A DNA stretch of 64,000 nucleotides from Bolinopsis microptera (Eukaryota). Each line of letters starts with the position of its first letter. Position 1 is the first letter of the stretch. Of the stretch, positions 3,863 through 35,437 are shown piece by piece. Location of the stretch: positions 4,938,797 through 5,002,796 of the forward strand of contig NC_087080.1 of the NCBI RefSeq assembly GCF_026151205.1, written 5' to 3'. The notes under the pieces are model-generated. The model was not told where the DNA came from. It did no database searches and was given only the letters and a program-made list of their open reading frames with translations. The position numbers were made by a program, and so were the translations under genes.

Positions 3863-3933
3863 TCACTGCAGGGTACGGGTGATGTTGTTAGCCTCCACTA
3901 CATCGCATACCATCTCTACCAGAGAGGAGGAAT
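3863..3933 (-). CDS. CREB3-like bZIP transcription factor, last coding exon (luminal C-terminus, includes the stop codon)
   Basis: Acceptor tgttttatctcag|AT. The phase matches the upstream exon (G+AT gives Asp). It encodes DSSSLVEMVCDVVEANNITRTLQ, then TGA at 3863-3865. Confidence 0.5.
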
Positions 3934-4387
3934 CTGAGATAAAACACGGTTATTTATATGAACTGAAGCTGAGGGCTGAGGAGTATAGGTAGTCAGTACC
4001 GTACAATTAGGAGTTAATAATAACTAATGATAATTTAAAGATTTAACAACATAAATTGGTAATGAATAAAATGATAATGAACTTATTAAAATATTAGTTA
4101 TTGTTAAAACTAGCACATACCTCGATGGAGGGGTAGGATGACAGAAACTCTACTGCTATCACTTTCTACAGTAGCCGGCACGTAGAAATTGTTATAACCT
4201 GTCCAAATAATGTGTCAATGATAGCTCAATGAATAGTGTGATCAGACGCCTTTTTACAATAGAAATGAAGCTAGAGTTATTAGACATAGGTCTGAACAGA
4301 AATTTGAAGTAAGATACGATTTGGTAAAGATAATTCCTACGGGCTAAGACAAATAGAAATTTGAATAAAATGTATTAGTCAACTTAC

Positions 4388-4608
4388 CAGAGACGATATA
4401 CTGCTTGTCTGGAGCTGCGTTGAACCCAACTTCCACAGTCTTATGCCTCCCTTTTAAGTAATTATTAAGGGTATCGATACTTGGGTCGACATAGTTGCTG
4501 TACGAAGCTGTGTCCTTTCGTAAGCTGTACTGGTCTGTTGATAATAACGTTCTGCTATTGAAGCTCTGCTGGTGGTACTTCGGCAGCCCCGCTGAACTTT
4601 GAAACAAA
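4388..4608 (-). CDS. CREB3-like bZIP transcription factor, luminal-domain exon containing an RxxL (S1P-like) motif
   Basis: Acceptor aataatttcag|TTTG and donor TCTG|GTAAGTTG (consensus). It has a 221-nt open frame: (S)LFQSSAGLPKYHQQSFNSRTLLSTDQYSLRKDTASYSNYVDPSIDTLNNYLKGRHKTVEVGFNAAPDKQYIVSG. RTLL lies ~20 aa after the TM helix, as in site-1-protease substrates of the CREB3/ATF6 family. Phase is consistent with the exons on both sides. Confidence 0.65.
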
Positions 4609-6506
4609 CTGAAATTATTGAAACTGTTAAGTTGGATTGTATTGATTGTATTGATGAAAATATGTATGAAAAAATGTATGTATGTATGTATGACAAAATG
4701 TATTGATAAAAATATCCGGTCAAGCAGCTAATGATTAAATTGGAAGTCAAGGGCCACTCGCTTGTTGTTGTTTGTTGTACACTGCTGAAGTTATCGGTAT
4801 TTTATGCTTATTTAGCTAGCCATAACATGGGAAATATATATCCACGCGCGCGCGCGCGCGTAACGCGCACTTGGCTGACAACTACTACGCGTACTTTTTA
4901 CGATATTTCAGTCGAATTTTACTAGTACTGAAAGATAAAATAACATTAATGCGACTGATTAGTTGCCAAGTTTGCGCAACAACCTCGGTCCTATCGGATA
5001 TTCGGATATTGGTGATTGAACATATTAAAGTAAGGTGTCCCTTAAGTGTTGAAACAACAAAGGAAGCAAGTTCACAGCTTCTTGGACGGAACCTTCGCTG
5101 ATTGGACGACTGATAGTTCAAAGAGAACTCATGAAATAATGTCGCCTAGATTTAACCTAACTTTTAAATATTAGACTACCCCTCAAAGTAGATTTATAAT
5201 ATTAGACTACCCTCAAAGTATATTTATATTTACCATTATAATTTGACATAGCTCTTTAAGTACTCTAACTAAATGATATCCCTGTTCACCAAGGAGGCTA
5301 CAAACTGTTTTAGGTTCCCATTCCCTTCTCAGCATCAACTATTATATTTTATCATAATTATTCATATGAAATGACATAAATCCACCACCCGATTGAGTAA
5401 AATATAATATGGTTACTTCACGGCTATTCGGAGTGCGCGAGGAGTAATTTGAACTTCAGTTCAGTCCACCTTTAGGCCAATTAATGGATAATTCGATTTC
5501 CTGAGTTCCTTTTCAGATAAGGAACATATTATTTCTCTTTCGCAACTTCAAAAAATTCATTAGAATGGCGCCTGAACAGGTTGATATAAAGATTAACCCA
5601 TAATTCATCGTAACAAGCTAATTAAAAAGAATCCCTTATCACACTAAAGATAGAAGGACCATAAAGCCACACTACATGCGGCTTAAGACATCGATTTCCT
5701 GTAAACGGCCCACCTAATCTCCGTATATGTATGGTTCATATTTCATGATAAAGTGGGTTATTACAGTAGTATGTTAGATTGTTAGTCTTATATCAAATAT
5801 CCCGTGTGAACATTATATAAGGGAGCTAACATAATGGATAATGTGACCCAGCTTGAAGCTGTGTGATATCACGTACCATATCACGGACATCTTGATCCAG
5901 GTGTAATTGAGTTAGGGAAGTGAAAGATAAACAAATTAACGGTGTAAACGATTATATTTGCGTTTTATTTGGCCATGATCAAGTCCTAAAATCGGATTAC
6001 CTACACTCCGGGAGAAATATGAGTCTACGTACCGTGTGATAAATGTGGGATATATATGCAAGGGGACGCAAAGGGCGCTTTGAATTACACACCGAGAGCA
6101 GGAATATTTGTCTAAGCTTCAAAAATATTTGCAAAGAATCGGGCTTTGTCTAATTATAAGCTTGATTTAATCTGTAACCCTTCACATTGCAGACTTCATG
6201 TTGAATGGTATGTAGACATTTGGCCCTGTATATCTAAGATACCTCTGCAAACTTCCTGTGTTTGTGTTAAGAACGTTAGGATTTGCTGTATATGAGAAGT
6301 TAATATTTAAACGAGATGTGAACTAAAAACTAAATCTTGATGAGACAGACACGACGCAGTTTGAGGGGTTCTAACTTTGTACTTTTTAGTAGGGGTAGTG
6401 CTACATACAAATAGACCATGCACGAGAACTCAAGCGAAAACTGTTAACTGAAACCACACAATATCTCAACTCCTGTATAATGCGAGAGCTATTAAACATG
6501 ACATAC

Positions 6507-6727
6507 CTGAAGGGTCCCAGAGATAGAGCGAAGACGAACATGAAGAACATCATGAGAGCGGTGCCCTTAAACCGGGGGGAGGTAGTGCACGTGCCCTTCT
6601 CGTCACTCTTGGAATGTGGTGGAACATTGGCCGGATCCAGCTCCTCCAGTTTGCCCAGGTCGGTGGTGGAGGTTAGGTTTCCCAGCACTGAGTTCAGCCT
6701 GTCTAGCGCTTCACGGAGTAGCGTGTT
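6507..6727 (-). CDS. CREB3-like bZIP transcription factor, exon with end of leucine zipper plus transmembrane helix
   Basis: Acceptor tccctccccag|AAC and donor TTCAG|GTATGT. It encodes NTLLREALDRLNSVLGNLTSTTDLGKLEELDPANVPPHSKSDEKGTCTTSPRFKGTALMMFFMFVFALSLGPF. There is a hydrophobic 17-20 aa segment. Phase 0 at the start; it ends with AG left over, which pairs with the T of the next exon. Confidence 0.7.
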
Positions 6728-6884
6728 CTGGGGAGGGAGAAGTTAGGGTGAATATCACATATGTTGAGTGGGTTATGTGATTTAGCGGCATTACTTCAAA
6801 ACTACCTATTATCAAGTGAAGCCCCGCCCTGAGCATTCTGATGTTATTTACTTATATAATTATAACCCTTAAACATGGTACATT

Positions 6885-7625
6885 CTTAAGGGGGCAGGGG
6901 GGGGTCTTTATGAAATTTCTCTCAAAATTGATTTTATAGTTGTTTCTAATAGAGGGGAGTGATATCTATCTGCTACTTTTGGTCCCATGGAAAAATTTTG
7001 TTTCTAGCCGAAATTATTGCCGGTCAAAGGTCAGCGCTCATGTGTAATTGTATTGCGCGAGCGATTTTCAATCGCGCGCCCTGAAAATCGAGTCTAAAAA
7101 TCTATCTCCTCCTACATTTTTTGAGCAATCACCTTGAAACTTTCAGGATATGTTCTAAGGACCATTTAGAAACTTTTACTCTTTTTAGAATTTCGAGATA
7201 GGCCTTTAAAAAATTTTTATTCGATTTTGAAAATCTTGGACCTGAAAAAATCGTCAAAAAACGAGGTCCAAGATTTTCAAAATCGAATAAAAATTTTTTA
7301 AAGGCCTATCTCGAAATTCTAAAAAGAGTAAAAGTTTCTAAATGGTCCTTAGAACATATCCTGAAAGTTTCAAGGTGATTGCTCAAAAAATGTAGGAGGA
7401 GATAGATTTTTAGACTCGATTTTCAGGGCGCGCGATTGAAAATCGCTCGCGCAATACAATTACACATGAGCGCTGACCTTTGACCGGCAATAATTTCGGC
7501 TAGGAACAAAATTTTTCCATGGGACCAAAAATATCTGGTAGATATCACTCCCCTCTATCAGAAACAACTATAAAATCAATTTCGAGAGAAATTTCATAAA
7601 GACCCCCCCCTGCCCCCTTAACAGG
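6885..7625. repeat. Long near-perfect palindrome / foldback element (arms ~360 bp, ~22-bp loop centred near 7258) inside an intron of the CREB3-like gene
   Basis: 6885-7245 is the reverse complement of 7270-7625 at roughly 97% identity. Examples are gggggcaggggggggtctttatgaaatttctc versus gagaaatttcataaagacccccccctgccccc, and ccggtcaaaggtcagcgctcatgtg versus cacatgagcgctgacctttgaccgg. It is AT-rich and non-coding, and flanked by TTAA on both sides. Confidence 0.85.
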
Positions 7626-7661
7626 GAAAATTCTTAAACAAGAAATTCCAAGATTACAAAC

Positions 7662-7769
7662 CTCGTTCTTGAGGGAGCCGTTCTGTTTCCGTAAATCGTC
7701 ATTATCCCTCAGAATTTGTATGTTTTGTTCAGAGGAGATAGCTAGCTTCGTCTCTACGCTTTGTAAATA
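7662..7769 (-). CDS. CREB3-like bZIP transcription factor, leucine-zipper exon
   Basis: Acceptor ttctttaccctcag|TAT and donor GAG|GTTTGT. It has 36 codons: YLQSVETKLAISSEQNIQILRDNDDLRKQNGSLKNE. It joins in phase 0 to the basic-region exon to give SRKRKKE-YLQSVETK, the CREB3-family spacing (compare SRKKKKEYIDGLETR in vertebrate CREB3L). Confidence 0.75.
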
Positions 7770-10074
7770 CTGAGGGTAAAGAATAGTTAAGCACACAGTC
7801 TAGGTAAACACATTCTTGATACACATATATTATTTTAGGTACACAGACTGCACAGATTACACAGCACAGACTGCAGTTATACCGGGACAGCGGGGTATGT
7901 CTATATGTGGGACGGGATGTTACGATGAAAGCCAACACCCAGGCTGTTAAACCTAACCCAAAACCAATAGTACAGAATTCCCAGAATACGCAGTATTATG
8001 TGTTCTAATACAGGCCCCAATCTTTGTGGTTGCACAGAGACATGTAAACCGACCGGTTATTACTCTTGAATACTGGTATCGGTTAATCAGAGATTGACTG
8101 TCATACTTCGATTTGTAGAATTAGCGAAGGGTAGCAGGCACGATAATTACAACCATACAAATATTTAGCATCGCATATCTACTCAGTGCGTCGAAATATT
8201 TCCAGAATTCAGTCATATAATTTAGTACAGACTCTTACAATAGTATATTGCAACTTCAACTTTTTGGGCAAGGTGTTTATTATAACCATTATATCATCTC
8301 TCACCACGAATTTGAAATTCGACACATGAAATTTAGGAAACATAACGTGTACACTTTAAACCTTGTTTCCGAGTACTGACAGTTACTGAACCATAAATAC
8401 GCGATCAATTTATATCAACAGATCCTACATTTTAAGCGGTGGGTTGCAATATTACCTGAGTGTTGATCCTTAGGGTTAAGTTAACTTCATCGGCCTTGAT
8501 TCTGACGAACTTAATTTGGTCACAGAGGGACCTTAATGGCAATAATTAGAGCCTTCAGAATAAAAGCCACGAAATTAATCTCTGGTCAAGTTGTTTACGG
8601 CCGTTTAAACGTTTGCTTATAATTATAATTTCACTAAACATCACCATAATTATTACTTACCGCTTAACTTATACATACTTAATGTTATTTAGGTATGGCA
8701 AAATAAGGGCCAATAAAGTGTTCTCACAATTCACATCACACAAATCAATAAAAGTAATGATCTATTTATGGAATTATTGAATAATAAATAGCAGCCAATA
8801 AAACTGCAGTATTTATTGTATAATGTATCGGGCGCAGCCTTCTGCAGAGTACCCAGTGTCTGCTAATTAATCTCACACTGACTCAATATACTCCTTAGTT
8901 CAGGCCGGTCCCAGGTGTGTATTATACACATGTTCCTTTGTTTTGAGCTCCTTTATAAAACTAACGCACACCACACCACACGATGTGGACAGTAACCATT
9001 GGTATTATTCCGTGTGTAATGAGCACACTGGTCTCTCTGGTTTTTGTCTAAACACACAGATATTGTTCATGTAAAGCGCCGCATCATGAGAAAGCTGCCA
9101 GATTGTGTTTCATGTGTGGAAAACTGTCAAAGTGCAGTCACACAGGAAACAGTCAGTGTTCTGTTGATGCGGTCACAATTACTTTTATATTGTACAGTAA
9201 GGTGTAATTTAACTGGAATGAGTTAGGAATGAGGATGTATTGGCTTACCTTAGGTTACCGGTTCCGTGAGATATAATAATGAGAATTATTAATTAATAAT
9301 GAATTTAATATAATGTATAACTTCCAAAGTATGAGCATAGATAAATTATAATGTGTATTAATATAAATATAATAAGACATTTGAACGGCGGCACACATTG
9401 CACAACACATTTAAATAATGTAAGGCAGGAAGCAGCGTTCAAAAGACTCCGCTATATTACACTATATATTACGCTATATTACACGGTGTGTAAAACAAAG
9501 CGCCCTCCGACGCTATTGAGAAAACTATTGAGAGAAATATTGGCCTGTACGTCTTTTGTTATAACAACTCTTAGAACAATTGTACCTCAGTTCAATTGAC
9601 GCAATCTGTGCGGCAAAATTTAAAAGATAACGGTGGTTAAATATGTATATTGTATAACTTCGACGAATTATATCAGAGTAAGTTTTTAAAAGATAAGTTT
9701 ATCTTAGTTAAAATAAATTCAGTCGAAATAACACGCGATTGCACAAGACGTACAACCATGATGCTTGATAGCTATTCGTTTGTGCGTGGTGTGCATTATC
9801 ATTATGCTATAATTATGCTGGCTGAAATTCAAGTAACAGGCGATCTTTTAATAGATTTCGACAAAGATTGTGGCGGCAAACCTCCATATATTTAAAAGAT
9901 TTTACGATGACGCAACTGCTTGAAAATTTGTACGTCTGACCCAACAATTTAGCCTACTTCTCGGAATTAAATTTCTAAGCAAGATCCACACTCACAGTGG
10001 ATGGGTACAATAAGAATTTAAAACCTAGAAGATAAGTTTTCTCAAATTAACTAATATAATCACAACCAACCCAC

Positions 10075-21299: not shown

Positions 21300-22682
21300 T
21301 TGTTTGCCGTACAACCCCAGGGATTTCCGACCATCTGAAACTCTTGGAATATTGTGTCAAGGAAGACTTTATACCAGCCATTATGGGCAAAAGGTTTGTG
21401 CCTGATCAAATCAGAAAAATAGCTTCACTTCCTGCAAGAATGGGCGGGCTGAGCATTCCAGACTGCACATCAACAGCAGAGATGGAGTACACTAACTCAG
21501 TAAATGCTACAAAACAGCTCACAGAAGCAGTTTTTCAACAGCTTACTACTTTCCAACTAAACGGAGAACTGCAGCATGACATCATAAGTGAAGTAAAGAA
21601 GCGTAAGGAAGAGCTTTACAAACACCAACGAGAAACTATTACGAATGAGGTATCCCCATCAACACAAAGGCAATTAGAACTCCTTAGTGAAAAAGGAGCA
21701 TCCATTTGGTTATCCACACTCCCTCTAAAAGCATGTGGGTACGTCCTTAACAAACAAGAATTCTTTGATGCCCTCTCACTCAGATATAATCTTACACTGT
21801 CTACAGCTAACAGAAGTCCCCTATGTGTATGTGGAAATCAAAATCATATCAACCATAATCTAACCTGCAAAATCGGAGGCTACGTTTCACTTAGACACAA
21901 TTCACTAAGAGATACAATAGCTGAACTCCTAACCACTGTTTGCAAAGACGTTGAAACAGAACCCCAGCTTCTCTCCGTTCCTCACACACTTGAACTATCT
22001 AATGGAACAAATAGACAGGATGGTGCAAGACTGGACATCAGTGCGAGATCGTTTTGGTCGCCGCTAGACAGGGCATTCACAGATGTAAGGGTACTTCACC
22101 CTCAAGCCCAGTCCAACAGTGACAAGAGCATCTCGCAGATGTACCAATCTCACGAGAAAAGCAAAAAACGTGAGTACAATGACAGAGTCCTCAATATTGA
22201 AAAGGCTACCGACCTTCACGCCACTGGTGTTCAGTACTACAGGAGGAATGGCAACTGAGGCTTCACAGTTCCTAAAACATCTCGCTGAAAAGATCAGCCT
22301 AAAGAAAGGCCAACGGTATTGTGATGTGATGTCATTTGTCAGACGCAGACTGCGTTTTGATCTACTCAGAACCTGTATAATCTCTATCAGGGGGTACAGA
22401 GGTACCAGAACCCTTCCACCCACGGCAATAAGTGATTTGGACCTTAACCTGATCAACACTCTTAAACCCTAAAAGGTCATGGAGTGCTTGTTGGATGGGG
22501 GTTTTAACTGCTTTTTGTTGTGATGTGATTTAGTGGATTTTATATATATTTATTACAAAGGGTTTTATTTTTACCTCAGTTTTTAAATTTGTAACATTTT
22601 TACAGAATTTTTATATAGGGTCATTGCTATATTATGTGTATATTGTTTGAATATTTTATTTAAAAAAAAAAAAAAAAAAAAG
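21300..22682 (+). mobile_element. 5'-truncated non-LTR retrotransposon copy ending in a poly(A) tract; C-terminal domain with a CCHC motif plus PD-(D/E)xK-like (R2-type restriction-like endonuclease) signature
   Basis: ORF 21344-22258 carries CVCGNQNHINHNLTC (C-x-C-x-H-x3-C), then LRHNSLRD, ETEP, ARLDISARSFW and FTDVRVLHP, followed by K-rich sequence. The frame-shifted continuation at 22119-22472 (FSTTGGMATEASQFLKHLAEKISLKKGQRYCDVMSFVRRRLRFDLLRTCIISIRGYRG) aligns with the intact copy at 61364-62104. An A22 tract lies at 22661-22682. Related fragments are at 54617-54985 and 61364-62104. Confidence 0.55.
21344..22472 (+). pseudogene. Frameshifted ORF of the RLE-type LINE copy (two overlapping frames, 21344-22258 and 22119-22472)
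   Basis: Comparison with the minus-strand copy at 61364-62104 shows that one continuous protein is split here by a frameshift. Confidence 0.55.
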
Positions 22683-23234: not shown

Positions 23235-25472
23235 TCAGGGGAGTTCTTTAATAATGTTATGGTCATCTAGAATACCGAACTTCCTGAAAACGTTATCATA
23301 TTTCCTCAGACAACGTTTAATGCCTTTAATCAGTCTATCACGGCTATATCCTCTATCAATTAGAATTTTGAATATTTTGTGAAGATGGGAGGTAAAGATA
23401 TCCAATCTAGTGCAAACATTACCATATCTAAGAACTTGACTTGAAAAAACGTTGTAGTCAACCTCGGTTGGGATGTTACTGTGAGGAAATGTAAGGGATA
23501 CAACATGAAAATTAAAATCATCAGTTTTGTTGTACACTGATATTTCTAGTCCTTCTGTGGAAATATTAATATTTAAATCAAGGTAGTTAATGATTTTATT
23601 ATTGGAACCAGCTCGCTCCATCTCCAATGAATTAGGATAAATATCTTTAATCAATTGATGAAAGTAAAGGTAGTTAATAATAGATAAATCGTCAACATAT
23701 CGTTTATTATTGGATAGTATCTTTGCTAATCCCATTTTCTTTTCCTGAAGTAAACGTTTCATATAATTAAATTCCTTTTTGCCAACAGTGAGATCAGCTA
23801 TAGGGGAACTTGAATTCCCACCCATAGGAATACCCTTGGTTTGTATGAATACAATCCCACCGAAGACGACATAAGTGTTATAAATAATAAATTTAACAGC
23901 CTCTTTTAGGTCATCTTGACTAAAGCAGGCATGAGAATCATAGGTTTTATTGGAAAAGAAACATGTATTACTGTCTCTTTTAGAAATACAAATATATCTA
24001 TTACGGTCTGAAAATATTAAATCAACAACTTCATTAATCATATTCTCTACTTCAATCAAGTCTAATCTGGTATAAAGAGTAGTAAAATCATATACTTGTA
24101 TATTATAAACATCGCTATTTTTGATAGCTTCAAGGAATTCACTTGAGGAATCTATGCTCCAAAACATGTTTATACCGCTGTTGTTGTAGATTGCCTCGCA
24201 GTATTTCTTGAAGTATTTCCTCAAAAGTTTCAGACAACAGTTAACTTGGACGTTAAATTGTTTCGTAACGCAAAAACGGGCACCTGCAATGAACCTCGCC
24301 TTGTAAGGGTTCTTATGAAGCTTAGGGTTCCAGAAGATGCGTGCTAGTCGCAAGTTTTTATCTTCAACTTGTACATTAAATCTCTCCTTTAGACTCTCAG
24401 ATATTTTATTGACATAATGAGTCTCGTCTTCGCTACAGGGTTTATATGTATCATTACCTATACATTCTAGAGTATTAGGTTCAAAACCCATTTCATTGAC
24501 AAGAGTTTTTACATAAAACTTTTTACAAATAAATGAAAAATTACCAGAAGCTTTGTCGATACTACAAATAATGTATTTACTTTTCAGCAATTTAAGACTT
24601 CTTTTAACATCATCTTTTTCCAGTGTGTTTTCTTTTATTTCAAATGTTTTAGGAAAGTTTTTCTTGTAATATTCAATACGATTGGAAACTATTGATAACA
24701 CTTTTTCCTTCCAAGCGCTGAACTTTACTTCTTTTTGACAGTACTTTCTACTTTTTGATTTTATAAATTTATCGACAGCTTCGGTAACTGACATATATAT
24801 CTCATCTGGAGATTTAAATGTGGGAATTCTGTATTTACAACCGTAGGAAAGTACTTCCCTAAGTTCAACATTATCAACAATATCTAAATTACCAGTAACT
24901 ACATGTCCATGAGGAGGATAATTGAAAGGGGAGGAGTGACAATCGCATGGACTACCTAAAATAGATTTAATATCAGAAATAGAAAGTTTCTTTAAGAATG
25001 AAGCATAGTTACAAATAGAAAGACTTCTAGGATCATTATACTCATAATAAATCTGTAATGGTGTAAAAGACTGAATCAAAATGGGAAGCAAATCAATGAC
25101 TGAAGTGTCAGAGAAAATAGATTTTAGGTTAAGATTATCAATGAATTTGCAATTAAATGGAACAATTATAAATTCTCTATTACTGGATTCAGATTTGTTC
25201 TGATGGTATTTGGGGGAAAATGTTGAACAGAAAGAGGAACATACGTTGTAAATCAATCCTGAATTATTTTGACTCAAAGAGTAGAGAGTGTCTAAATCTG
25301 ATAAGCTATAACATTTTAATGTTTTGTATATGGAATGTTCTGAAGAGATGTTATCTTTCAGCCTGTTAATATCAGACTCTATGGTATCGAGAGACTTCTT
25401 AGGCTGAACTTTCTTCTTTCCATTCCCTCTGCCACGTTTGTATCGAGCAATCTGTCCACTAAAATAATTCAT
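23235..25472 (-). CDS. Penelope-like element (PLE) reverse transcriptase ORF, 745 aa
   Basis: It has the PLE-type N-terminal DKG-like motif (YIICSIDKASGNFSFICKKFY), the RT motif 1-2 KLHKNPYKARFIAGARFCVTK (compare K-I-H-K-x3-P-x-R-P-I-V-S of PLEs), GIPMGGNSSSPIADL, and the YxDD box RYVDDLSII. Confidence 0.6.
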   Translation of the reverse strand: MNYFSGQIARYKRGRGNGKKKVQPKKSLDTIESDINRLKDNISSEHSIYKTLKCYSLSDLDTLYSLSQNNSGLIYNVCSSFCSTFSPKYHQNKSESSNREFIIVPFNCKFIDNLNLKSIFSDTSVIDLLPILIQSFTPLQIYYEYNDPRSLSICNYASFLKKLSISDIKSILGSPCDCHSSPFNYPPHGHVVTGNLDIVDNVELREVLSYGCKYRIPTFKSPDEIYMSVTEAVDKFIKSKSRKYCQKEVKFSAWKEKVLSIVSNRIEYYKKNFPKTFEIKENTLEKDDVKRSLKLLKSKYIICSIDKASGNFSFICKKFYVKTLVNEMGFEPNTLECIGNDTYKPCSEDETHYVNKISESLKERFNVQVEDKNLRLARIFWNPKLHKNPYKARFIAGARFCVTKQFNVQVNCCLKLLRKYFKKYCEAIYNNSGINMFWSIDSSSEFLEAIKNSDVYNIQVYDFTTLYTRLDLIEVENMINEVVDLIFSDRNRYICISKRDSNTCFFSNKTYDSHACFSQDDLKEAVKFIIYNTYVVFGGIVFIQTKGIPMGGNSSSPIADLTVGKKEFNYMKRLLQEKKMGLAKILSNNKRYVDDLSIINYLYFHQLIKDIYPNSLEMERAGSNNKIINYLDLNINISTEGLEISVYNKTDDFNFHVVSLTFPHSNIPTEVDYNVFSSQVLRYGNVCTRLDIFTSHLHKIFKILIDRGYSRDRLIKGIKRCLRKYDNVFRKFGILDDHNIIKELP

Positions 25473-25910: not shown

Positions 25911-26216
25911 TGTATGTCCAAAGATAAACTTTCAACACTACTATATAACAAATAATTTGAGGACCCCCAGTGGGAACTAATGCCTCGGTAAATGTAACGA
26001 CCATTACAGGTTGTATGTCAATGTAAATGGTTGTTGCATGATAAAGTTATCTTAAAGACATCCTAAGGACTATCAGACATCGATTTTTAAAGCAGTTTAC
26101 TCCCATCTATCACCTAAAGATTATCAGACATCATTTATCCTTATCCTCCGGAGTGCTACAAAGGTACTGTAATCATTAACTAAATTTCGAACAGTAGCAT
26201 CTTTTTGTGATAAACT

Positions 26217-27880
26217 ATGTCTAGAATACCAGAACTTGGCTCAAGAGATTACAATCTGAGATATCGAGGGAATGCTGTTAAATTCCCCAGTAATGGCTCT
26301 CGTCCTACTGATAAATGTTCAAATTGTTTAACTCTATTAAGAGAGAATGATCGTCTTCGTCGGCAAATTTCTATTCTCTATAAACAATTATCAGAAAGTG
26401 ACAGTGCACTCAAAGTTCCCCTCAGCAATAGTTCACTTGTCTCTGTGTTGCCCCAGGTACCTGATCACTGTGAACATTCTATCAAAGTTCCCCTCAGTAA
26501 TAGCTCATCCTCGCATCTTGTTTCTGAGTTAACCCAAGAGCTATCCAAATTAGCAGAAGACAGTGAACATTCAGCAGAAATTATCAATTCGGAAAATCCC
26601 AAACACTCTGTAAATGGTGTCAATGGTGTGACCAACTCTATCATTCCATACCAAGATTTGAGTCGAGGAGTTTTTCAGTTTGTTGACACTGCCAAGTTAG
26701 ATATAGAAACCCACTATACTCATGACTTTGAGAATAGGACAGTTGCATATTATGGGGACTTTCCCTACGCTTACAATGGAGGCTTTCATAACACAAGGCG
26801 TCAAGGCCAGTAGCAGACAATCCCTACCTAAAGTCTATTTTAGAACGATTACGCTCACAGTTCCCAAAGTTGAAATTCAATAGTGCTATGATTACCAAGT
26901 ATAGAAATGGTCAGCAAGGAATTCCCTTTCACTCGGATGACGAGAGGTCAATTTCACCAGGCTCCATGATCTCCACCATCTCTTTAGGGGCTACTAGAGT
27001 CCTAAGCTTCAGATCCAAACTTAGAGCTCATATTGCTGACCTTACCCTCTCCCATGGTGACATAATGAATATGACCAGACAATCCCAGACCAGCTTTGAA
27101 CACAGCCTCATCCAGGACAAGTCTGAAACCATGAGAATAAGCATTACTCTGCGCCTAATTGATGGCAGCGCAACCATATCTACTCTGTCTGATGTTTCCA
27201 GTCAAGTTAAGAACACTGAACCCTCGGCCCCTAAGACTAGATCAATAGAACATTCTGGTAAATCTTTGTGTGTCTACATTAGCTCTAGTATGTTCTCCAA
27301 ATTAGAGGGAGAAAAGCTATCGTCCAAACAACATGAGGCACATGTATTCAGCTACCCTGGTGCCACAGCCAATGCAATCAATGAACGGTTTCAATCAGAT
27401 GTAAGAAAAGACACTCTTAATACCAATAATGTGAAAAGCATTGTACTTATGTGTGGTACAAATGACGTGGACTCTATCCTGAACAGCCCTCGCAACATGA
27501 GGACTAAACTTCTGTGCCCTGATAGTTTTTCTGGTGATGCTAGAGCTCTTGACTTTACAAACAATTGTATTGAAAAACTTGTACTTTTCCTTCACAAGTG
27601 GGCACCTGGAGCTGATATTAAAATTGTTAACTTATTACCTCGGGAGAGTTTCTCCAGAAACAAGGTTATAACAGATATCAATGGATGTATATCAAATCTG
27701 CAAAGAAAATACACCTATGTAAAACTGCTCTCAACCGAGACAAATCGTTTCTTGTTTAGTGATAAGAAAGGCTTTAGAAAATCGTCATTTTTTAGTAGTT
27801 ATGGAGAGGATAATGTCCATCTCAATGATTATGGCATAGTTAAACTAGCAAGGCACTTGAAGTATCATGCACACCATTAG
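26217..27880 (+). pseudogene. LINE ORF1 (interrupted at 26814-26869): coiled-coil N-terminus plus AlkB-like 2OG-Fe(II) dioxygenase domain plus SGNH/GDSL esterase domain
   Basis: AlkB N-part in ORF 26217-26813: RTVAYYGDFPYAYNGGFH. AlkB core in ORF 26870-27880: FNSAMITKYRNGQQGIPFHSDDE...ISTISLGATRVLSFRS...LTLSHGDIMNMTRQSQTSFEHSL...RISITLRLI (HxD...H, a second His, R-x-S-x-T-x-R). SGNH blocks: VYISSSM (I), SYPGATANAI (II), LMCGTNDV (III), DNVHLNDYG (V). Esterase ORF1s are known from CR1-like LINEs. The two ORFs are separated by stops and a frameshift. Confidence 0.6.
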
Positions 27881-27952
27881 AATACTGCTGAATACTGACA
27901 TAACACTGGACTACCATCAGTTTTATTTTTACAGTACGACTTACTTTTTTTT

Positions 27953-28760
27953 TTACTTTGGGCGATGCTCGATCGAAATCTCCTCCACTCTACGTCTCCA
28001 GATGGTTCTGTCGCACATAACTGTTCGGAGATCTTCTACCCGCAACCCTGTGTCCCTGGCTACGGTGTCAAGAAAAGAGAGTGGTCTCCTCCCACGCCTG
28101 AACTGTGGCAGCCGCCAAGGAAGGATGGTAGAGATGACCTGGTCTGAAGCTCTCATGCAATGCCCAGCAAATCTGGCACGTCTCTGTGCGACGATGGTGG
28201 AGATGGAAGGGAGGTCACCATAGATTTGCTTTAGGGTTGGATGCTTCTTCCATGAAAGATTCCTGGCTTTCATTAGGAGCCTGGTGTAGCACCCGTCGAG
28301 ACGCTTCTCAAACTGCTTGTTCAAGGTCCAGGTTTCTGAGCCATACAGCAGAACAGGTTCGATGCATGCTCTGAAGAACTTGACTTTCAGCTGGTCAGAA
28401 ATGCCAGAGGTCCATACCTTCTGCAGTTTGATACAGGCTGACCAAGCCATGCCTTTCCTGGTGTTGAAGTCCTTCCTGCTCTCTGCAATATATGAGCCCA
28501 AGTATTTGAAGTCATCGACCTGCTTGATCTGGTAACCGGATATTGAGTTCACGGGGGCAGCATCAGGAATGTTGATGGTCATGTATTCGGTCTTGGAAGC
28601 ATTCATCGCAAGTCCGACATGTGCTGCTGCAGTCTCTAAATCCGAGAGCAGTTGCTGGACTTGCTCTATGGTATCGGCAGTCAAGGCCAGGTCGTCAGCG
28701 AAGTCAAGATCTGTGACTCTGACCGCAGGTACTCTACGACATCCAGACAAATACAACCTG
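27953..28760 (-). mobile_element. Nested 5'-truncated RTE-like LINE fragment (RT C-terminal half), GC-rich, inserted between ORF1 and ORF2 of the host LINE
   Basis: The 267-aa ORF carries FADDLAL (RT motif C), SKTEYM, YLGSYI and the tail ...KLQKVWTSGISDQLKVKFFRACIEPVLLYGSETWTL...RRARFAGHCMR. It is homologous to the 33194-35437 ORF tail. Its GC content is much higher than the flanking sequence. Confidence 0.7.
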
Positions 28761-28837
28761 CTTTTATTCTGTTTTTTAGTTTAAACACAACTTTACAACT
28801 TTTATTCATTCCATTGTGAATTAATAAGATTCACAAG

Positions 28838-30403
28838 ATGACAAATTTTAATAATGCAGCTGATAGGTTTCACAACCTCTGCATTGGTCACTGTAACATT
28901 CAAGGAGGGCTTCTTAATTTAGCTAAAAGTAATGAACTTTCCCAACTTATTAGAGATCATAAATTAGACATACTTTCCCTAAATGACATGAATCTTAATG
29001 ATACTATTGACACAGACACCATAAATATTCCTTCCTCCTTCAACCTTATGCGATGCGACAGGCCAAACAGTTCTAGTGGTGGTTGTGGCTTAATGATAAA
29101 CAAAAAACTAGCTTACACAGAATTAGTTATGGATAGTAAGCTTGATAACATTGAAGCATTATGGGTGAAGCTTAAGAATAGCAAGATCAATGTTTGCTGC
29201 TTCTATCGCTCTGGAAATTATTGCAGTGTTGATAACTTTATTGAGTACATTCATTTTTGCATGAAAAAATTGAATGGGAAAAAGGTTATCTGGATTGGGG
29301 ATATAAACATTGACCAGAATAATATCTCATCCACCCAGTACAAAAAATTAGATATGACCTTGAGATGTTACAATCTAGTTCAAACCATTCAAGGGATAAC
29401 TAGAGTTGCTAAACGTGGAGACAATTTTACCCAGACTACTATTGATGTAATATTCACTAACTGTTATGCAGATTTTGTTCAATCTTCTGTTCTTGATGAA
29501 CGTATTGGGGATCATCAAGCTATTATGTGTGAGATAGATTGTAAAGTACCTATAGCTCCTAAATTTGAAAAGGTTGAAATTAGAAATCATTGTAAACGTA
29601 ATGTTAAACAATTCTTAGACTATCTAGATACCTGTTCTGATTACAGTCCACTATTGGAAAGTACAGATGTTGAAGCTATCACTGCTGGCCTTTGTCATCA
29701 TATTGAACAGGCATATGCAACCTTCTTCCCTTGCAAGACCATAGAAAGGCATGAAAAGTTCATACATAAACCTTCTACTGAACTTTTAAATGCCATTAAT
29801 CATACACATTTTCTTCTAAAGAAATTCCGTAAAAAGAAGGATAAGAGAGACAATGGAAATTGCAATAAATGTGGTACATGTAGCAAATGTATAAAGTGTA
29901 ATGAGGCCTGGGATTGCTACAAGATTCAGAGAAATATTAGAAATAAATTAGCTAAAACCTGCAAAAAGGCTAATGTAATCGATGATCTACAAGTTAAAAG
30001 TGCCAAGAATGATCTTAAAGGGATATGGAAAACTATCAAACTGGCATCAAATATGACCCCTGGTACAAATAATTGTCAAACTATCAATGAGAATGATCCT
30101 GAGCTATTTAACTTTCATTTTGCAAATGTTGGATCAAGATTACAAAATCAGGCGCCCAATATTGAAAGAGTTAGTTTTACTGATTTTTTACCTCCTAGAA
30201 CTTCTAACATCTCATTTGATAGATTCCAAGAAATAAATGAAACTGATATCCTAATGTATGTCGAAACGCTCAAGAATGACAAGGCCTCATATGACGATGT
30301 GCCTCTATTTTTACTTAAGCAAGCTGTACCACACATAGTTGAACCACTGACCCATATTGTCAATTTGAGCCTTAATACAGGTGTTGTACCAACCCGTTTG
30401 TAA
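28838..30403 (+). CDS. LINE ORF2, N-terminal part: apurinic/apyrimidinic-type endonuclease (EEP) domain plus linker
   Basis: IGHCNIQGGLLNLAKSNELSQLIRDHKLDILSLNDMNL...IWIGDINIDQNN...TRVAKRGDNFTQTTIDVIFTN are the exo-endo-phosphatase motifs of LINE APE endonucleases. Confidence 0.7.
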   Translation: MTNFNNAADRFHNLCIGHCNIQGGLLNLAKSNELSQLIRDHKLDILSLNDMNLNDTIDTDTINIPSSFNLMRCDRPNSSSGGCGLMINKKLAYTELVMDSKLDNIEALWVKLKNSKINVCCFYRSGNYCSVDNFIEYIHFCMKKLNGKKVIWIGDINIDQNNISSTQYKKLDMTLRCYNLVQTIQGITRVAKRGDNFTQTTIDVIFTNCYADFVQSSVLDERIGDHQAIMCEIDCKVPIAPKFEKVEIRNHCKRNVKQFLDYLDTCSDYSPLLESTDVEAITAGLCHHIEQAYATFFPCKTIERHEKFIHKPSTELLNAINHTHFLLKKFRKKKDKRDNGNCNKCGTCSKCIKCNEAWDCYKIQRNIRNKLAKTCKKANVIDDLQVKSAKNDLKGIWKTIKLASNMTPGTNNCQTINENDPELFNFHFANVGSRLQNQAPNIERVSFTDFLPPRTSNISFDRFQEINETDILMYVETLKNDKASYDDVPLFLLKQAVPHIVEPLTHIVNLSLNTGVVPTRL

Positions 30404-31814
30404 AAAAGCTAGAGTAACTCCCATCCATAAGGCAGGAATGAAAGATGATCCTAATAATTACAGGCCAATATCCATCCTTCCACTTATAGGAAAACTTATA
30501 GAATACTTTGTCGGCAAGCAACTCACTGATTACATGGAAGAGAACAAATTTTTCATCCGGCATCAATATGGCTTTCGGAAAAATCACTCCACAACTTATT
30601 TGATGTACGATCTGATGGACGAAATATATATGAGTAAATCTAAGTCTTATAAACCAGGAATCATCTTTCTTGATCTTAAGAAGGCCTTTGACACAGTGAA
30701 TCATGAAATATTGCTTCAAAAATTGGCATATTATGGAATTGGTGGCATTGCTTTAACCTGGTTTAAGAACTTCTTATCTTGTAGATATCAATGCACAAGG
30801 ATCAATGGCAAAATAAGCTCATTTTTAGAAGTTCTGAGTGGTGTACCACAAGGAAGCATCATTGGGCCTATATTATTTAGTATCTTCATAAATGACATCA
30901 TTTATGCCTGTAACCTATCTAAGCCCTTTCTATTTGCAGATGATGGTGCACTATTCTTTGATCAAACCTGCAGAAGCACATTTATAAACATGAAAATAGA
31001 ACTTATGACAATCTTTAAATGGCTCAGTGTTAATAAATTATCACTCAATGAAAAGAAGACTGAATTCCTATTGTTTGATTCTGTTGATCAACATGATGAA
31101 TTAACCATTGAATGTAATGAGGTAACTTTCACAATCAAGGAGTGCAAAGAGACAAAATATCTTGGCCTCATTCTAGATAGTAAATTAAACTTCAAAAGCC
31201 ATGTAGATTATATTATTAGGAAGGTCATGAAGAGAATTGGTGCCATGTATAGAAGCAAAGCACTGCTACCCATTAAATATAGGAAAATGTTTGCCAATGC
31301 ACTCATGTTGCCACAATTCGATTATTTAGACACGATCTATTGTAGAGCTGGCAAGACAAAACTTGCTGAACTTGACACTCTGTACAAAAAGGTAGCCAAA
31401 ATAGCTCTCAACGTTCCACAAACAGAGAGCAGCCTTAATGTTTATAGAGACATGAAATGGTTACCACTCCATCTTAGACGACAACTCCATCTGTCTAATT
31501 ATATGTTTAGAATCATCCATGACAATTGTCCTACAAACTTTATGAACAAATTTAGTTACATATCAGGAGGTAGTAGGAGCGGCGAAAGCTGCAACCTATA
31601 TGTTAATAGATCAACATCACATAAAAACTTTCAATACTTGGGGGCAAAATGTTGGAATAATGTTCCAACAGATCTACGAAATCTGCCCGATGTTAAAAGC
31701 TTAAGTGATTCGTATAAGAAACAGCTACTCTCATCTATAACAACAGACCCTAATTACACCGTCGACAATTCATATGACAAATTTTACACTGCAATCATAG
31801 TCGACGATAACTAA
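30381..31814 (+). CDS. LINE ORF2, reverse transcriptase part (frame differs from the APE part; overlap 30381-30403)
   Basis: YRPISILPLIGKLIEY, GFRKNHSTT, IFLDLKKAFDTVNHEILL, SGVPQGSIIGPILFSIFIND and FADDGALFF are the LINE RT motifs 1-5 (CR1/L2-like). The APE-to-RT frame change indicates a decayed copy or a frameshift. Confidence 0.75.
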   Translation: MLYQPVCKKARVTPIHKAGMKDDPNNYRPISILPLIGKLIEYFVGKQLTDYMEENKFFIRHQYGFRKNHSTTYLMYDLMDEIYMSKSKSYKPGIIFLDLKKAFDTVNHEILLQKLAYYGIGGIALTWFKNFLSCRYQCTRINGKISSFLEVLSGVPQGSIIGPILFSIFINDIIYACNLSKPFLFADDGALFFDQTCRSTFINMKIELMTIFKWLSVNKLSLNEKKTEFLLFDSVDQHDELTIECNEVTFTIKECKETKYLGLILDSKLNFKSHVDYIIRKVMKRIGAMYRSKALLPIKYRKMFANALMLPQFDYLDTIYCRAGKTKLAELDTLYKKVAKIALNVPQTESSLNVYRDMKWLPLHLRRQLHLSNYMFRIIHDNCPTNFMNKFSYISGGSRSGESCNLYVNRSTSHKNFQYLGAKCWNNVPTDLRNLPDVKSLSDSYKKQLLSSITTDPNYTVDNSYDKFYTAIIVDDN

Positions 31815-33193
31815 GTATCTTCTTATTCTTTTAAATCTGAGGCATATATAATTTATGTCGAAAGGATATTCCCTTTTTGACCACCTTACCATTCTGATTG
31901 ATTTTGCACATGACTGACATGTTTTAACTGGAGAAGGGATTCGCACAGTGGTAGTTTTATAAACCACTTTTAATTTATTGACCTATTATACCTAGTGGTA
32001 GTTTTATAGACCACATTTAATTTATTAACTTATCATACTTAGTATTTATTTTTGGTGACTGTATCACCCAGTTTTAACATTTGATAATTGTACAGTTTAT
32101 TGACGACACATTGACTGAATGTTATTTTATATTCTAATTTATATTCTAGATATTTTATTTATTTTTCAACAGACGACAACTTCCTGTTTTTTCTTCTATT
32201 TTAGTTACTCATATCTCTTGTACAGACTGTTTTACAAGGACATTGACAGATGATACTCACATTAGGCATTCATTATTGCATCTAAATTATTTCACTTGCA
32301 TTAGGTTTAGAAATTTATTCTCTGGTTAACAGATTTCAAATGTTTAATCAATTTGTAGTATGACAGTAAGGTATATAAGAAGTTATTTAATTTTGCTTGG
32401 GCTATTATATTGACTATTGAGGTTTAATGATGATATGGAATTTGAATTCTATATAAATTTACACTATGTGGTTGGGGCATTTTGCATAGTAAATATGGTT
32501 ACTACTCCTATACGTATATCATATTATTTGATTGGTATTCGATTTCTGATTATTTCTTAGGAATATGATTATTATATCTCAATTTGGCTTTAGGTAGGGT
32601 GCCCCGCTAAAAGAACTGGATTCTTCCAGGAAGCATCCCGTGCACAGACCTTGGTCTACATATATATTAAATTATTAACCATTCATTCTGTATGTGCACG
32701 AAAATTTATTTCAATCAATCAATAAAATCATTATTAAAAGTACTGCTCCTAAATGTATTAACAGGATTAAAACTGTTGCAAGTGAGACAACCTCTACCAT
32801 TGCAACATCTAAAAGTGCTAGAAAAGACATTACTAGGGGTTACCCATTTATTCAAGGATTTTGAGAAAAATTTACCATTACGTTTAAGTCAAGAAGGTAA
32901 CATCATCCCTTTCGGCGTTTCCGCCTAGACCCAACGACTCGAGATAGGCCAAGGACAACGGGTCGGACATCAACCTATTGTCATGGGGCTGCCATGATTG
33001 GGCGGGCGTTAGATGTCATGAACCTAAATAGTTCTCCCACCGACGCAGTGTAGCCTGGCGAGATTCTTCGCGACCATAAAAATCTCTTAGAACCGGATCT
33101 TGCACTGCCGCTGTTTCTCGTACCGTAGCATGGCGGACAGCTCACGCCAGAAAATGAAATAAACAGGTAAATACAGGATAAATCAGGAGATGT

Positions 33194-35437
33194 ATGTACA
33201 ACAACAAGACTTCAAGGAGGGCGCCCAAGAAAACAAAGATCAACCAAATCTCGGAACCAATGGCCGGGAGAGATATAAATGTAATTATAATATATTATAT
33301 TAATATAATTAATGATTCTGATATTAAGTCTAAATTTTTTGATTCCTTTAAAAGTAATATTGATTGTAGAGTTTTAACTAATAATGCTATTTCTGAAAAT
33401 TCTGATATATTTGGTATATTGAGTAAATGTGCCGTCCAGGTGGTTGGTAAAGTGCCCCCGGGGAAGCCTCATCAGTACAGCGACGATCCAACTGTCGTTA
33501 AACTTTCAGCAGAGAGAAAGTCCCTTCAGCAAGAATGTAGTCTCACAGGGATAAGCGACAGGAGTGACCTCAGAAAAAGAATCAACCATCTCAAACGTAC
33601 CATCAAAAAGAGGTTGAAATCCATCAACGAGGCCACTGCTAACACCCTAGTAGATGTCATCAACAACACCGACAGCTGCAGAAGCATGTTTGAAGCAAAT
33701 AGAACTTTGGCCCAGTGTAGGATGAAGAAAGACGGAGTGACTGTCCACGATGCAGACGGGAACACCTTAGGTTCTGACTCATTAAAAGCAGAAGCTATTA
33801 AAGAATACTTTAATAATGAGTTCAATGACAAAGATGAACCCCACCTCCCAGCATTCATAGACCCTCCTGGAAGCCTCCTCTGTCCCATAACACCTGAAGA
33901 AGTTGGCCGTGCTGTTATGAAGCTGAAATCCGGTAGAGCGTGTGGCCCTGACGGTATACCTAATGAGCTAATGAAAGCTGCTGGATATCCCCTCCACTGT
34001 GAGTTGGCTAGGATCTATAATCTCTCCTTTGAGACCAACACATACATCCCAGCTATTGGAGAAGGTATCCTGACACCCCTTCAGAAGCCAGGAAAACCCC
34101 GAGGTCCGATAAAGTCTATCCGGCCCCTCACATTGCTAAATGGAACTAGAAAAGTCCTATCCCTCGTAGCCTTGAACAGAATCAATTACCACGTTGATAT
34201 GTACACTGGACCTTGGCAGGCGGCATACAAGCAGGGTCGCAGTTGTGCTGACCTGGTATGGTCTCAGAGAATGTTGACATCAGTGGTTACCAGGCGCGAG
34301 TTTGAGTATAGTAAAATCAACATCGACATGACCGCTGCGTTTAATACTATCCGCAGACAGACCATCATCAACCTCCTCATTGATGCAGGATGCTCTAGAG
34401 ACGACATTCGCCTAGTTCAGTACCTCCTCTCAAATACAAAGCTCAAGGTGACGGTCAACAGATCTGAGTCTGGTGAATTTGTGATTAATATTGGCGCTTA
34501 CCAGGGAGACAGTCTGGCAGGTAAAGTGTTTACATTGACCCTTGCCGGTGCCCTGAATCACATCAGAGCCGTGATCAGCGTCACGATTCCTAGACCGAAC
34601 CCCCCAGTCTCTGATAGAGGCCTCCCGTTAGAGTCCGCCTATGCTGACGATGCTGAGCTTCTGAGTGAAGATGGTCAGAGCCTGGTGAAGATACTAGAGA
34701 TTGCCAGTGATATACTGAAGGATTGGAGTCTCTTTGTTAACGAATCAAAGACGGTGTTTACAAGAGTGTATTTGGCAGATACAGATGCTTTAGATGCCCA
34801 TGGCAATAAAATTAGAGGAGATGAAGAGTGGCGAGAGTCAGTGCTATTAGGATCAAAGCTCTGCTCAGAAAGAGATATTGTCAACAGACGCAACAAAGCC
34901 AATGTTGCCTTCTACACCTACAAGAAAGTCTGGTTGAATAGTTCTGTTCAGATCAGTGAGAGTAGAAAGCTGAAGCTGTACGAAGCTCTTGTCACTTCAG
35001 TGTTGTTGTATAACTGTAGCAGCTGTGCTGCTCCTGAAACCGTAATGGCATCTGTCGACGTTCTTCAAAGGAAGCATCTGAGACAGATAATCAACACCTA
35101 TTGGCCTACGGTTATCAGTAACGAGAATTTATACAAGAGATGTAATGTCAGACCCCTTACTGAAAGGATCAAGAAAGCAAGATGGAAGATGCTTGGGCAC
35201 GTTCTCAGAAGCGGTGATGACACTCCCGCCTTCTTATCTTTCAGATTTGCATGTTTAGGATGTTTTGACTACAAAGGAAGGAGGGGCAGACCTCGTTCAA
35301 ATTTATTTGATTTATTATTAAAAGACATTATGACAAAACAAATTATTGTGATTGTAAATAAAAGATTTAGTTTAAGTAATTTCAACGATTTAGTGTACAA
35401 AGCTCATGATAGACGTCTTTGGAGAAGTTATGGGTGA
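33194..35437 (+). CDS. RTE-like LINE reverse transcriptase ORF (747 aa, no endonuclease domain, so 5'-truncated or decayed at the N-terminus)
   Basis: GPDGIPNELMKAAG, RPLTLLNGTRKVLSLVALNRI, IDMTAAFNTIRRQ, YADDAELLSED and the tail KLKLYEALVTSVLLYNCSSCA...ARWKMLGHVLRSGDD...GRRGRP. The N-terminal ~110 aa are low complexity. Confidence 0.7.
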   Translation: MYNNKTSRRAPKKTKINQISEPMAGRDINVIIIYYINIINDSDIKSKFFDSFKSNIDCRVLTNNAISENSDIFGILSKCAVQVVGKVPPGKPHQYSDDPTVVKLSAERKSLQQECSLTGISDRSDLRKRINHLKRTIKKRLKSINEATANTLVDVINNTDSCRSMFEANRTLAQCRMKKDGVTVHDADGNTLGSDSLKAEAIKEYFNNEFNDKDEPHLPAFIDPPGSLLCPITPEEVGRAVMKLKSGRACGPDGIPNELMKAAGYPLHCELARIYNLSFETNTYIPAIGEGILTPLQKPGKPRGPIKSIRPLTLLNGTRKVLSLVALNRINYHVDMYTGPWQAAYKQGRSCADLVWSQRMLTSVVTRREFEYSKINIDMTAAFNTIRRQTIINLLIDAGCSRDDIRLVQYLLSNTKLKVTVNRSESGEFVINIGAYQGDSLAGKVFTLTLAGALNHIRAVISVTIPRPNPPVSDRGLPLESAYADDAELLSEDGQSLVKILEIASDILKDWSLFVNESKTVFTRVYLADTDALDAHGNKIRGDEEWRESVLLGSKLCSERDIVNRRNKANVAFYTYKKVWLNSSVQISESRKLKLYEALVTSVLLYNCSSCAAPETVMASVDVLQRKHLRQIINTYWPTVISNENLYKRCNVRPLTERIKKARWKMLGHVLRSGDDTPAFLSFRFACLGCFDYKGRRGRPRSNLFDLLLKDIMTKQIIVIVNKRFSLSNFNDLVYKAHDRRLWRSYG

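Follow-up and report, generated by a model that had tools for sequence, protein, structure and literature searches.

We analysed a 64,000-nucleotide stretch of the Bolinopsis microptera genome (NCBI RefSeq assembly GCF_026151205.1, contig NC_087080.1, positions 4,938,797 to 5,002,796 of the forward strand; hereafter the window, numbered from its first letter). Alignment with paralogues and analysis of the open reading frames (ORFs) showed that positions 25929-32723 are a single copy of a long interspersed nuclear element (LINE), full-length yet dead, whose first ORF (ORF1) joins an AlkB-family 2-oxoglutarate/Fe(II) dioxygenase domain to an SGNH esterase. Three lesions were found in this copy: an 8-bp insertion in ORF1, a nested LINE fragment, and a 1-bp insertion in ORF2. 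The surroundings, from 24 to 34 kb, are a retroelement pile of about 37% G+C. The element is built as follows.

25929-26216, plus strand: LINE 5′ untranslated region (UTR); other copies are homologous from 25929, and the alignment with the relatives L001 and L007 begins at CTTTCAACAC
26217-27880, plus strand: ORF1, 551 aa after removal of the 8-bp insertion
27941-28734, minus strand: nested LINE fragment of 794 bp in the ORF1-ORF2 spacer
28838-31814, plus strand: ORF2, with an APE endonuclease at about 28892-29524 and a reverse transcriptase (RT) at about 30429-31172
31815-32723, plus strand: LINE 3′ UTR, with a short (CAAT)n/(TCAA)n repeat at its end (32711-32723) and without poly(A)

The 6132-bp contig L007 carries an element 96-99% identical to the window copy with both ORFs intact, and in alignment this contig was matched end to end by window positions 25933-27940 plus 28735-32719; the 5′ end of the element was set at 25929 by the second relative, L001. 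L007 is uninterrupted where the window copy carries the nested fragment, which derives from an unrelated, 5′-truncated LINE, retains the C-terminal part of an RT, and is marked by an A10 tail and a 6-bp target-site duplication (TSD), TACGAC. A minus-strand ORF at 27953-28756 matched RVT_1 in Pfam. ORF2 of the window copy matched Exo_endo_phos (7.6e-6) and RVT_1 (6.9e-36); its frame is broken by one extra G at 30396, which the intact 991-aa ORF2 of L007 lacks. The 3′ terminus of both copies is (CAAT)2-3 without poly(A), and homology stops right past tcaatcaat. For a 3′ stem-loop, folding of the last 133 nt gave a hairpin no better than those of shuffled sequences (z=-1.16; 24 of 200 shuffles as good). 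ATAAA occurs at both element ends (25924-25928 and 32722-32726) and may be a 5-bp TSD, but is so short and A/T-rich that this is uncertain.

Positions 26217-27880 are covered by one ORF at 26217-26813 and another, in a different frame, at 26870-27880; three-frame translation showed the two to be a single gene split by a frameshift. Frame 0 terminates in YYGDFPYAYNGGFHNTRRQGQ followed by a stop, and frame 2 resumes with PVADNPYLKSILERLRSQFPKLKFNSAMITKYRNGQQGIPFHSDDE. Across the insertion point, the intact paralogues P0127, P0122, and P0003-5 have GGFHNTRPVADNPYL, with the junction falling at GGFHNTR|PVADNPYL; therefore, the defect is an 8-bp insertion at 26799-26806. The inserted cgtcaagg nearly duplicates the preceding caagg, and its deletion gave one continuous ORF1 frame of 551 aa. 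A preliminary description of this DNA, made from the letters alone, had attributed the interruption to stops at 26814-26869. That stretch is no stop block; in the shifted frame it continues to encode part of the AlkB domain.

The repaired ORF1 protein was then described from Pfam, Protein Data Bank (PDB), and fold matches and from an AlphaFold2 (AF2) model built on an alignment of 58 sequences, whose members are 30-80% identical to the window protein; the structures are thus predictions. The order of parts is an N-terminal helix, a disordered region, the AlkB domain, a linker, and the SGNH esterase, as listed here with the AF2 confidence (predicted local distance difference test, pLDDT).

26319-26399, plus strand: predicted long alpha-helix, aa 35-61 (AF2, pLDDT about 60), with a conserved CxNC just before it
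aa 62-139: disordered region of low AF2 confidence
26637-27184, plus strand: AlkB domain of ALKBH2/3 type, aa ~141-320 by Pfam PF13532, PDB, and fold matches (aa 140-320 in the AF2 model, pLDDT >90)
26799-26806, plus strand: frameshifting 8-bp insertion within the AlkB domain
26930-26932, 26936-26938, 27101-27103, 27134-27136, and 27152-27154, plus strand: AlkB residues H236, D238, H293, R304, and R310, respectively
27185-27253, plus strand: disordered AlkB-esterase linker of variable length, aa 321-343 (pLDDT <50)
27254-27877, plus strand: SGNH/GDSL esterase with blocks I, II, III, and V, aa 344-551 (aa 345-551 in the AF2 model, pLDDT >90)
27281-27289, 27359-27361, and 27461-27463, plus strand: esterase block I (SSS), block II (G379), and block III (N413), respectively
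27809-27811 and 27818-27820, plus strand: D529 and H532 of esterase block V

Both enzymatic cores were complete in translation, as the preliminary description had claimed: the AlkB domain reads YYGDFPYAY, PFHSDDE, ISLGATRVLSF, SHGDIMNM, FEHS, and RISITLR, and the esterase reads ISSSMF, YPGAT, CGTND, and DNVH. Its central claim, that the two domains are fused in ORF1 of a LINE encoding an APE endonuclease and an RT, is likewise borne out by Pfam, motifs, predicted fold, and the downstream ORF2. PF13532 (2OG-FeII_Oxy_2) matched the repaired ORF1 with 68.3 bits (E=1.4e-18; curated cut-off, 31.2), matched the raw downstream 336-aa ORF alone with 61 bits (E=2.4e-16), and scored up to 114 bits in relatives. 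Combined AF2 and Foldseek analysis predicted a double-stranded beta-helix fold with a nucleotide-recognition lid for this domain. Lipase_GDSL_2 stayed under its cut-off of 32.9 on the window copy (19.6-20 bits, E=1e-3) and exceeded it in the more divergent relatives P0266, P0249, and P0260 (34.8-44 bits). An AF2 model of the esterase domain only (pLDDT 92) matched platelet-activating factor acetylhydrolase (PAF-AH) Ib, 2hsj, sialate O-acetylesterases, TesA, and the C-terminal domain of Oskar in Foldseek, with E down to 9e-9, and the family esterase profile matched 2hsj, a PAF-acetylhydrolase-like SGNH protein, at 2.7e-5. In the helix region, C34, L47, and an LRRQIA consensus are conserved across the 58 sequences, and by analogy with the ORF1 protein (ORF1p) of the zebrafish element ZfL2-1 (PMC3905857), aa 35-61 are a candidate multimerisation coiled coil. 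Comparison of linker 27185-27253 with positions 1267-1334 of L007 revealed a 26-residue segment (KLSHNMIALEETVPSIVCKPSLKNIS) that is present in P0127/L007 and P0003 and absent from the window copy and P0122.

To place the AlkB domain among the known subfamilies, we compared it with PDB entries both as a single sequence and as a family profile. ALKBH3 and ALKBH2 were matched by either (single-sequence E 3e-12 and 7e-14; profile E 2e-25 and 1e-23, respectively). E. coli AlkB, ALKBH8, and ALKBH5 gave no match at E<=1 with the single sequence and were reached by the profile at 7e-5, 9e-4, and 0.08, respectively; FTO and ALKBH1 were matched by neither the single sequence (E<=1) nor the profile. NCBIfam returned only weak, sub-threshold matches to bacterial AlkB equivalogs, as would be expected of a domain that is not E. 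coli-like. The fold comparison ran the same way: in Foldseek the AF2 AlkB model matched ALKBH2 with a TM score of 0.70 (29% identity; root-mean-square deviation [rmsd] 2.2 A over 174 columns) and ALKBH3 with 0.72, and FTO appeared only beyond rank 40 with an rmsd of 7-19 A. ALKBH3 has exactly the same metal/substrate motif, HSDDE. Ahead of RxxxxxR, the family consensus IPKD resembles VPKE of ALKBH3, while ALKBH2 has a duplex-contacting RKK at that loop and the window copy has LIQDKS. By similarity ranking rather than phylogeny, the domain thus belongs with ALKBH2/ALKBH3, the enzymes of 1-methyladenine/3-methylcytosine (1-meA/3-meC) repair, and leans towards the single-strand/RNA-active ALKBH3.

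Conservation at the active sites was then examined in the 58-sequence alignment. The AlkB iron triad (H236, D238, and H293), the 2-oxoglutarate arginines R304 and R310, and N219 were invariant, as were S353-355, G379, and N413 of the esterase; D529 and H532 were kept in at least 90% of the sequences and were invariant in a 23-sequence domain alignment. Between two ORF1 subfamilies the ratio of nonsynonymous to synonymous substitution (dN/dS) in the AlkB domain was 0.09-0.12 (bootstrap 95% confidence interval [CI] 0.04-0.20), calculated from unsaturated pairs only because synonymous sites were saturated between more distant subfamilies. This indicates purifying selection. Along ORF1, dN rose from 0.12 in the AlkB domain, the slowest-evolving part, to 0.24 in the esterase and about 0.7 in the N-terminal region. 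L004 and L005, both from one genome, differed at synonymous sites only (dN=0, dS=0.013). In the N-terminal region, the window copy versus L007 gave a dN/dS of about 2.2 with few changes and a CI of 0.8-5.7, which we do not read as positive selection. The ORF1 AlkB domain is probably a catalytically active dioxygenase.

The broken copy at 25929-32723 was the only one that tblastn and blastn detected in the 64-kb window, which by itself would suit a chimeric capture or an assembly artefact limited to this copy. Searching 5.8 billion proteins with ORF1 returned 148 matches, mostly of 520-600 aa, having PF13532 with or without PF13472, and an exhaustive profile search of 1.84 billion representatives returned 532 clusters at 50% identity (E<=1e-30); both domains were covered in one stretch by about 100 of the best 150 profile matches. 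Intact proteins of 550 aa and 576 aa were among the cluster mates at least 90% identical to the window ORF1. The genomic context was examined for 18 related loci, 16 of which were long enough to judge, and every one of these 16 carried an AlkB-esterase ORF1 followed 70-250 bp downstream by an APE/RT ORF2. Both ORFs were intact in 10 of them (L003, L005, L007, L008, L010, L011, L013, L015, L016, and L017). In the Mnemiopsis leidyi locus L002, ORF2 homology also lies downstream of ORF1. With hundreds of 50%-identity clusters and the same architecture on independent contigs of several assemblies and on Mnemiopsis leidyi chromosomes, a one-off capture or artefact is refuted, and what chance remains to it is negligible. 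Intact paralogues, which the preliminary description had proposed to seek, therefore exist, and no judgeable locus lacked the fusion. Neither of the outcomes that this description had named as refuting, a missing profile match or copies devoid of the domain, was observed; we are practically certain that the AlkB-esterase architecture is a feature of the family. This is a large and recently active family of APE/RT LINEs of about 6 kb in ctenophore-type genomes.

Two loci, L010 and L001, are mosaics, in which ORF2 and the 3′ UTR have 97-100% DNA identity to the window/L007 element while the 5′ UTR and ORF1 have 53-82%. The breakpoint is sharp and falls at the start of ORF2 (L007 ~2200-2260), and AlkB and esterase are kept in both ORF1 variants. 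This pattern suggests that subfamilies have recently exchanged their ORF1 modules by recombination. In addition, L008 (ENA ERZ27293624 k119_795574), positions 218-9083, is a giant relative with a 1356-aa ORF2 containing APE and RT and a 1575-aa ORF1, whose roughly 1000 N-terminal residues have no Pfam match and are followed by AlkB (1135-1269) and then the esterase.

All named members of the family are from Mnemiopsis leidyi (KAL5252013.1, KAL5261821.1, KAL5270367.1, and KAL5264234.1); the remaining ones come from ENA, JGI, and Logan assemblies, several of them labelled marine metagenome. Many intact copies lie on megabase contigs of ERZ25071805, where an adjacent MatE transporter has named relatives only in Mnemiopsis (56%) and Bolinopsis (46%), suggesting that the host of these contigs is ctenophore-like. 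A homologue search with ORF2 found about 150 close relatives and no named LINE among them, and the R2 and L1 RTs in the PDB were equally far from the ORF2 RT (about 1e-10 to 1e-12). One relative, P0414, is a 972-aa LINE ORF2 that is 52% identical to the family and is deposited in NCBI as a protein of a Tenacibaculum sp. metagenome-assembled genome; almost certainly, eukaryotic sequence from a ctenophore or zooplankton has contaminated a bacterial bin here. A CR1/L2-like placement of the element is plausible from its esterase-type ORF1, the absence of poly(A), and the (CAAT)n tail, features that are supportive rather than diagnostic. CR1-group elements typically lack poly(A), Zenon being the exception (PMC13343379), and RTEX and Penelope elements, too, can carry esterases (PMC3905857).

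What, then, might an AlkB domain do for a LINE? The explanation we favour, with somewhat more confidence than doubt, is an esterase-class ORF1p that has an ALKBH2/3-type demethylase inserted in its linker and that clears methyl lesions from its own RNA. Having loaded onto the RNA that encodes it, ORF1p would carry the enzyme on the ribonucleoprotein (RNP) of the element, where it would free the single-stranded RNA template, and perhaps also single-stranded target DNA, of methyl groups of the 1-methyladenine/3-methylcytosine type. Such lesions on the Watson-Crick face would stall reverse transcriptases and ribosomes, and their removal would give more full-length cDNA in target-primed reverse transcription (TPRT), a kind of template hygiene; the AlkB domain may also provide a nucleic-acid-binding surface missing from esterase-type ORF1ps. 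3-Methylcytidine (m3C) and related marks are hard RT stops that AlkB can remove, a property on which ARM-seq and DM-tRNA-seq rely (PMC7969016). Plant RNA viruses employ an AlkB built into their replicase to this end; these viral domains repair 1-meA/3-meC and prefer RNA over DNA (PMC2553587). ALKBH3 demethylates 1-methyladenosine (m1A) and m3C in RNA (PMC6411830). For the narrower proposal that lesions of the m1A/m3C type on the element's own RNA are the main substrate, the chances appear about even. More tentatively, and with doubt outweighing belief, Watson-Crick-face methylation (m1A/m3C), whether damage or host-written, might be a real barrier to LINE reverse transcription in these animals that is answered by an ALKBH3-like eraser in the RNA-coating protein.

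Several points weigh against this explanation. Activity and substrate are both read from homology, and the ALKBH2/3 placement is a similarity ranking that does not imply orthology. The profile scored ALKBH2, which prefers double-stranded DNA, and ALKBH3, which prefers single-stranded DNA/RNA, nearly equally, and so does not separate RNA from DNA. The explanation also presupposes that m1A/m3C would occur on the LINE RNA of these animals at a level that matters. Furthermore, most LINEs thrive without AlkB, and any advantage may be peculiar to this lineage or have nothing to do with template repair.

The preliminary description had suggested an element-encoded demethylase that removes either m1A/m3C damage or N6-methyladenosine (m6A) marks from the RNA intermediate, the latter countering host control. 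The first part fits the observed ALKBH2/3 affinity; the second is disfavoured by the profile values, ALKBH5 standing at E=0.08 and FTO without a match, against 2e-25 to 1e-23 for ALKBH3/ALKBH2. Since the affinity is with ALKBH2/3 and not with ALKBH5/FTO, removal of methyl lesions is likelier than m6A erasure. An ALKBH5/FTO-like m6A eraser that lets the LINE transcript escape m6A-dependent host silencing or sequestration does have precedents in plants, where m6A demethylases of both transposable elements and hosts are known to benefit retroelements: the AlkB of an orchid Ty3/Gypsy element is an active m6A demethylase (PMC9289625), and Arabidopsis ALKBH9B promotes Onsen mobilisation (PMC10686560). 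In addition, the substrate range of the AlkB family is poorly predictable from sequence. Nevertheless, FTO is low in the fold list and poorly superposed, HSDDE is the motif of 1-meA/3-meC repair enzymes, and m6A reportedly promotes rather than restricts retrotransposition of mammalian L1 (cited in PMC9289625); we consider such an eraser improbable.

Rather unlikely, too, is action on DNA, that is, on lesions in single-stranded target-site DNA during TPRT or in the new cDNA. TPRT does expose single-stranded DNA, and the nearest solved relatives are DNA repair enzymes (ALKBH2 solved on double-stranded and ALKBH3 on single-stranded DNA), but the family lacks the RKK duplex-contact loop of ALKBH2 and is ALKBH3-like there, and new cDNA has little time to acquire lesions. 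Moreover, ORF1 proteins are thought to work mostly on RNA in a cytoplasmic RNP (PMC3905857), and viral AlkB domains in an analogous position favour RNA (PMC2553587). Alternatively, the AlkB fold could be retained chiefly as a nucleic-acid-binding module for which catalysis is irrelevant. No RNA-binding domain has been recognised in the esterase ORF1ps of RepBase (PMC3905857), binding to single-stranded nucleic acid is a property of AlkB domains, and a catalytically dead mutant of the orchid AlkB retains RNA binding (PMC9289625). Against this, all three Fe(II) ligands and both 2-oxoglutarate arginines are invariant in the 58 sequences, which would be unexpected for binding alone, and binding and catalysis can coexist; we therefore give a purely binding role only a slim chance.

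If Watson-Crick-face methylation is indeed such a barrier and is answered in this way, the LINE would be the first non-LTR (long terminal repeat) element seen to encode an enzyme for template repair or counter-defence, and m1A/m3C would be a possible axis of host-transposon conflict. LINE ORF1 proteins are usually viewed as RNA chaperones or packaging proteins, and the esterase class already stands out as unexplained. A second enzyme, one that modifies nucleic acids and is conserved in a large, recently active family, suggests that TPRT is sensitive to the chemical state of its RNA template. A practical consequence is that counts of the ALKBH gene family in ctenophore genomes will be inflated by these elements, because LINE ORF1s stand among the "hypothetical proteins" of Mnemiopsis, KAL5252013.1 for example.

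Across the 64-kb window no clear host gene was seen. An intact 745-aa ORF at 23235-25472 on the minus strand adjoins the 5′ end of the LINE and shows RT-like motifs by eye (GIPMGG...SP, RYVDDL, and YLDL...VYNKTDD...FPHSN). It gave no Pfam match at E<=0.1 and no PDB sequence match. It resembles a Penelope-like RT and may be a divergent retroelement polymerase missed by current profiles. On the plus strand, an intact 747-aa RT ORF at 33194-35437 matched RVT_1 (9e-19) and weakly DUF6451, with no endonuclease match, and a 304-aa ORF at 21344-22258 gave a weak, sub-threshold match to Methyltransf_28.

Searches of full-text literature found no description of AlkB in a LINE ORF1, or in any LINE or ctenophore transposable element, only the orchid Gypsy element and plant viruses (Repbase Reports and subscription journals lay outside their coverage), in agreement with the preliminary description, which knew of none. 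A tubeworm genome paper naming AlkB proved irrelevant. A 2026 survey of vertebrate CR1-group elements reported only esterase ORF1s in CR1 and L2 (PMC13343379). Esterase LINEs and AlkB domains borne by transposable elements or viruses are already known; within the literature covered, their combination, the AlkB subfamily, and the host group are not.

Compared with cellular enzymes, the LINE domain is closest to ALKBH3/ALKBH2, the best match in sequence and fold across the catalytic domain, with HxD...H, RxxxxxR, HSDDE, and FNS..Y in common. It differs from them in being only 25-30% identical, in sitting in ORF1 fused to an esterase, and in lacking the ALKBH2 RKK loop. On the esterase side, the nearest counterpart is the esterase ORF1p of ZfL2-1 (4c1a/4c1b; PMC3905857), which likewise has an N-terminal helix/coiled coil, a poorly conserved linker, and a C-terminal SGNH esterase. 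As in this type, including the CR1/L2, RTEX, and Penelope esterases, the present family has a Ser/Asp/His triad, a Gly/Asn oxyanion hole, and ORF1 upstream of an APE/RT ORF2, and the ZfL2-1 esterase has the same structural relatives, PAF-AH Ib, TesA/TAP, and Oskar (Schneider et al., PMC3905857). The ZfL2-1 esterase 4c1b itself was not matched at E<=10 by the single sequence or profiles, nor was it among the top 50 Foldseek matches; it was crystallised in a split half-domain form that makes matches harder to obtain (PMC3905857). Unlike the ZfL2-1 type, the present family has an AlkB domain of about 180 aa between helix and esterase, and Schneider et al. found no RepBase esterase ORF1p with another structural nucleic-acid-binding domain (PMC3905857).

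On the AlkB side, the replicases of plant RNA viruses (Flexiviridae and others; PMC2553587, PMC544882) are alike in being part of a compact, RNA-based selfish replicator that carries AlkB in an RNA-handling protein; they belong to RNA viruses rather than a reverse-transcribing LINE, and host kingdom and protein context differ. The Ty3/Gypsy AlkB of the orchid Phalaenopsis (PMC9289625) is the other instance of a retrotransposon lineage with a fixed AlkB-family domain. Plant RNA viruses and one orchid LTR lineage have so far made up the short list of selfish replicators that bear AlkB; the present family adds animal non-LTR elements and the ALKBH2/3 repair subfamily. Whereas the Phalaenopsis domain is ALKBH5-like, is a demonstrated m6A demethylase, and is encoded by a separate ORF2 of a 25-kb LTR element in plants, the LINE domain described here is ALKBH2/3-like and lies inside a LINE ORF1 in animals, the ctenophores.

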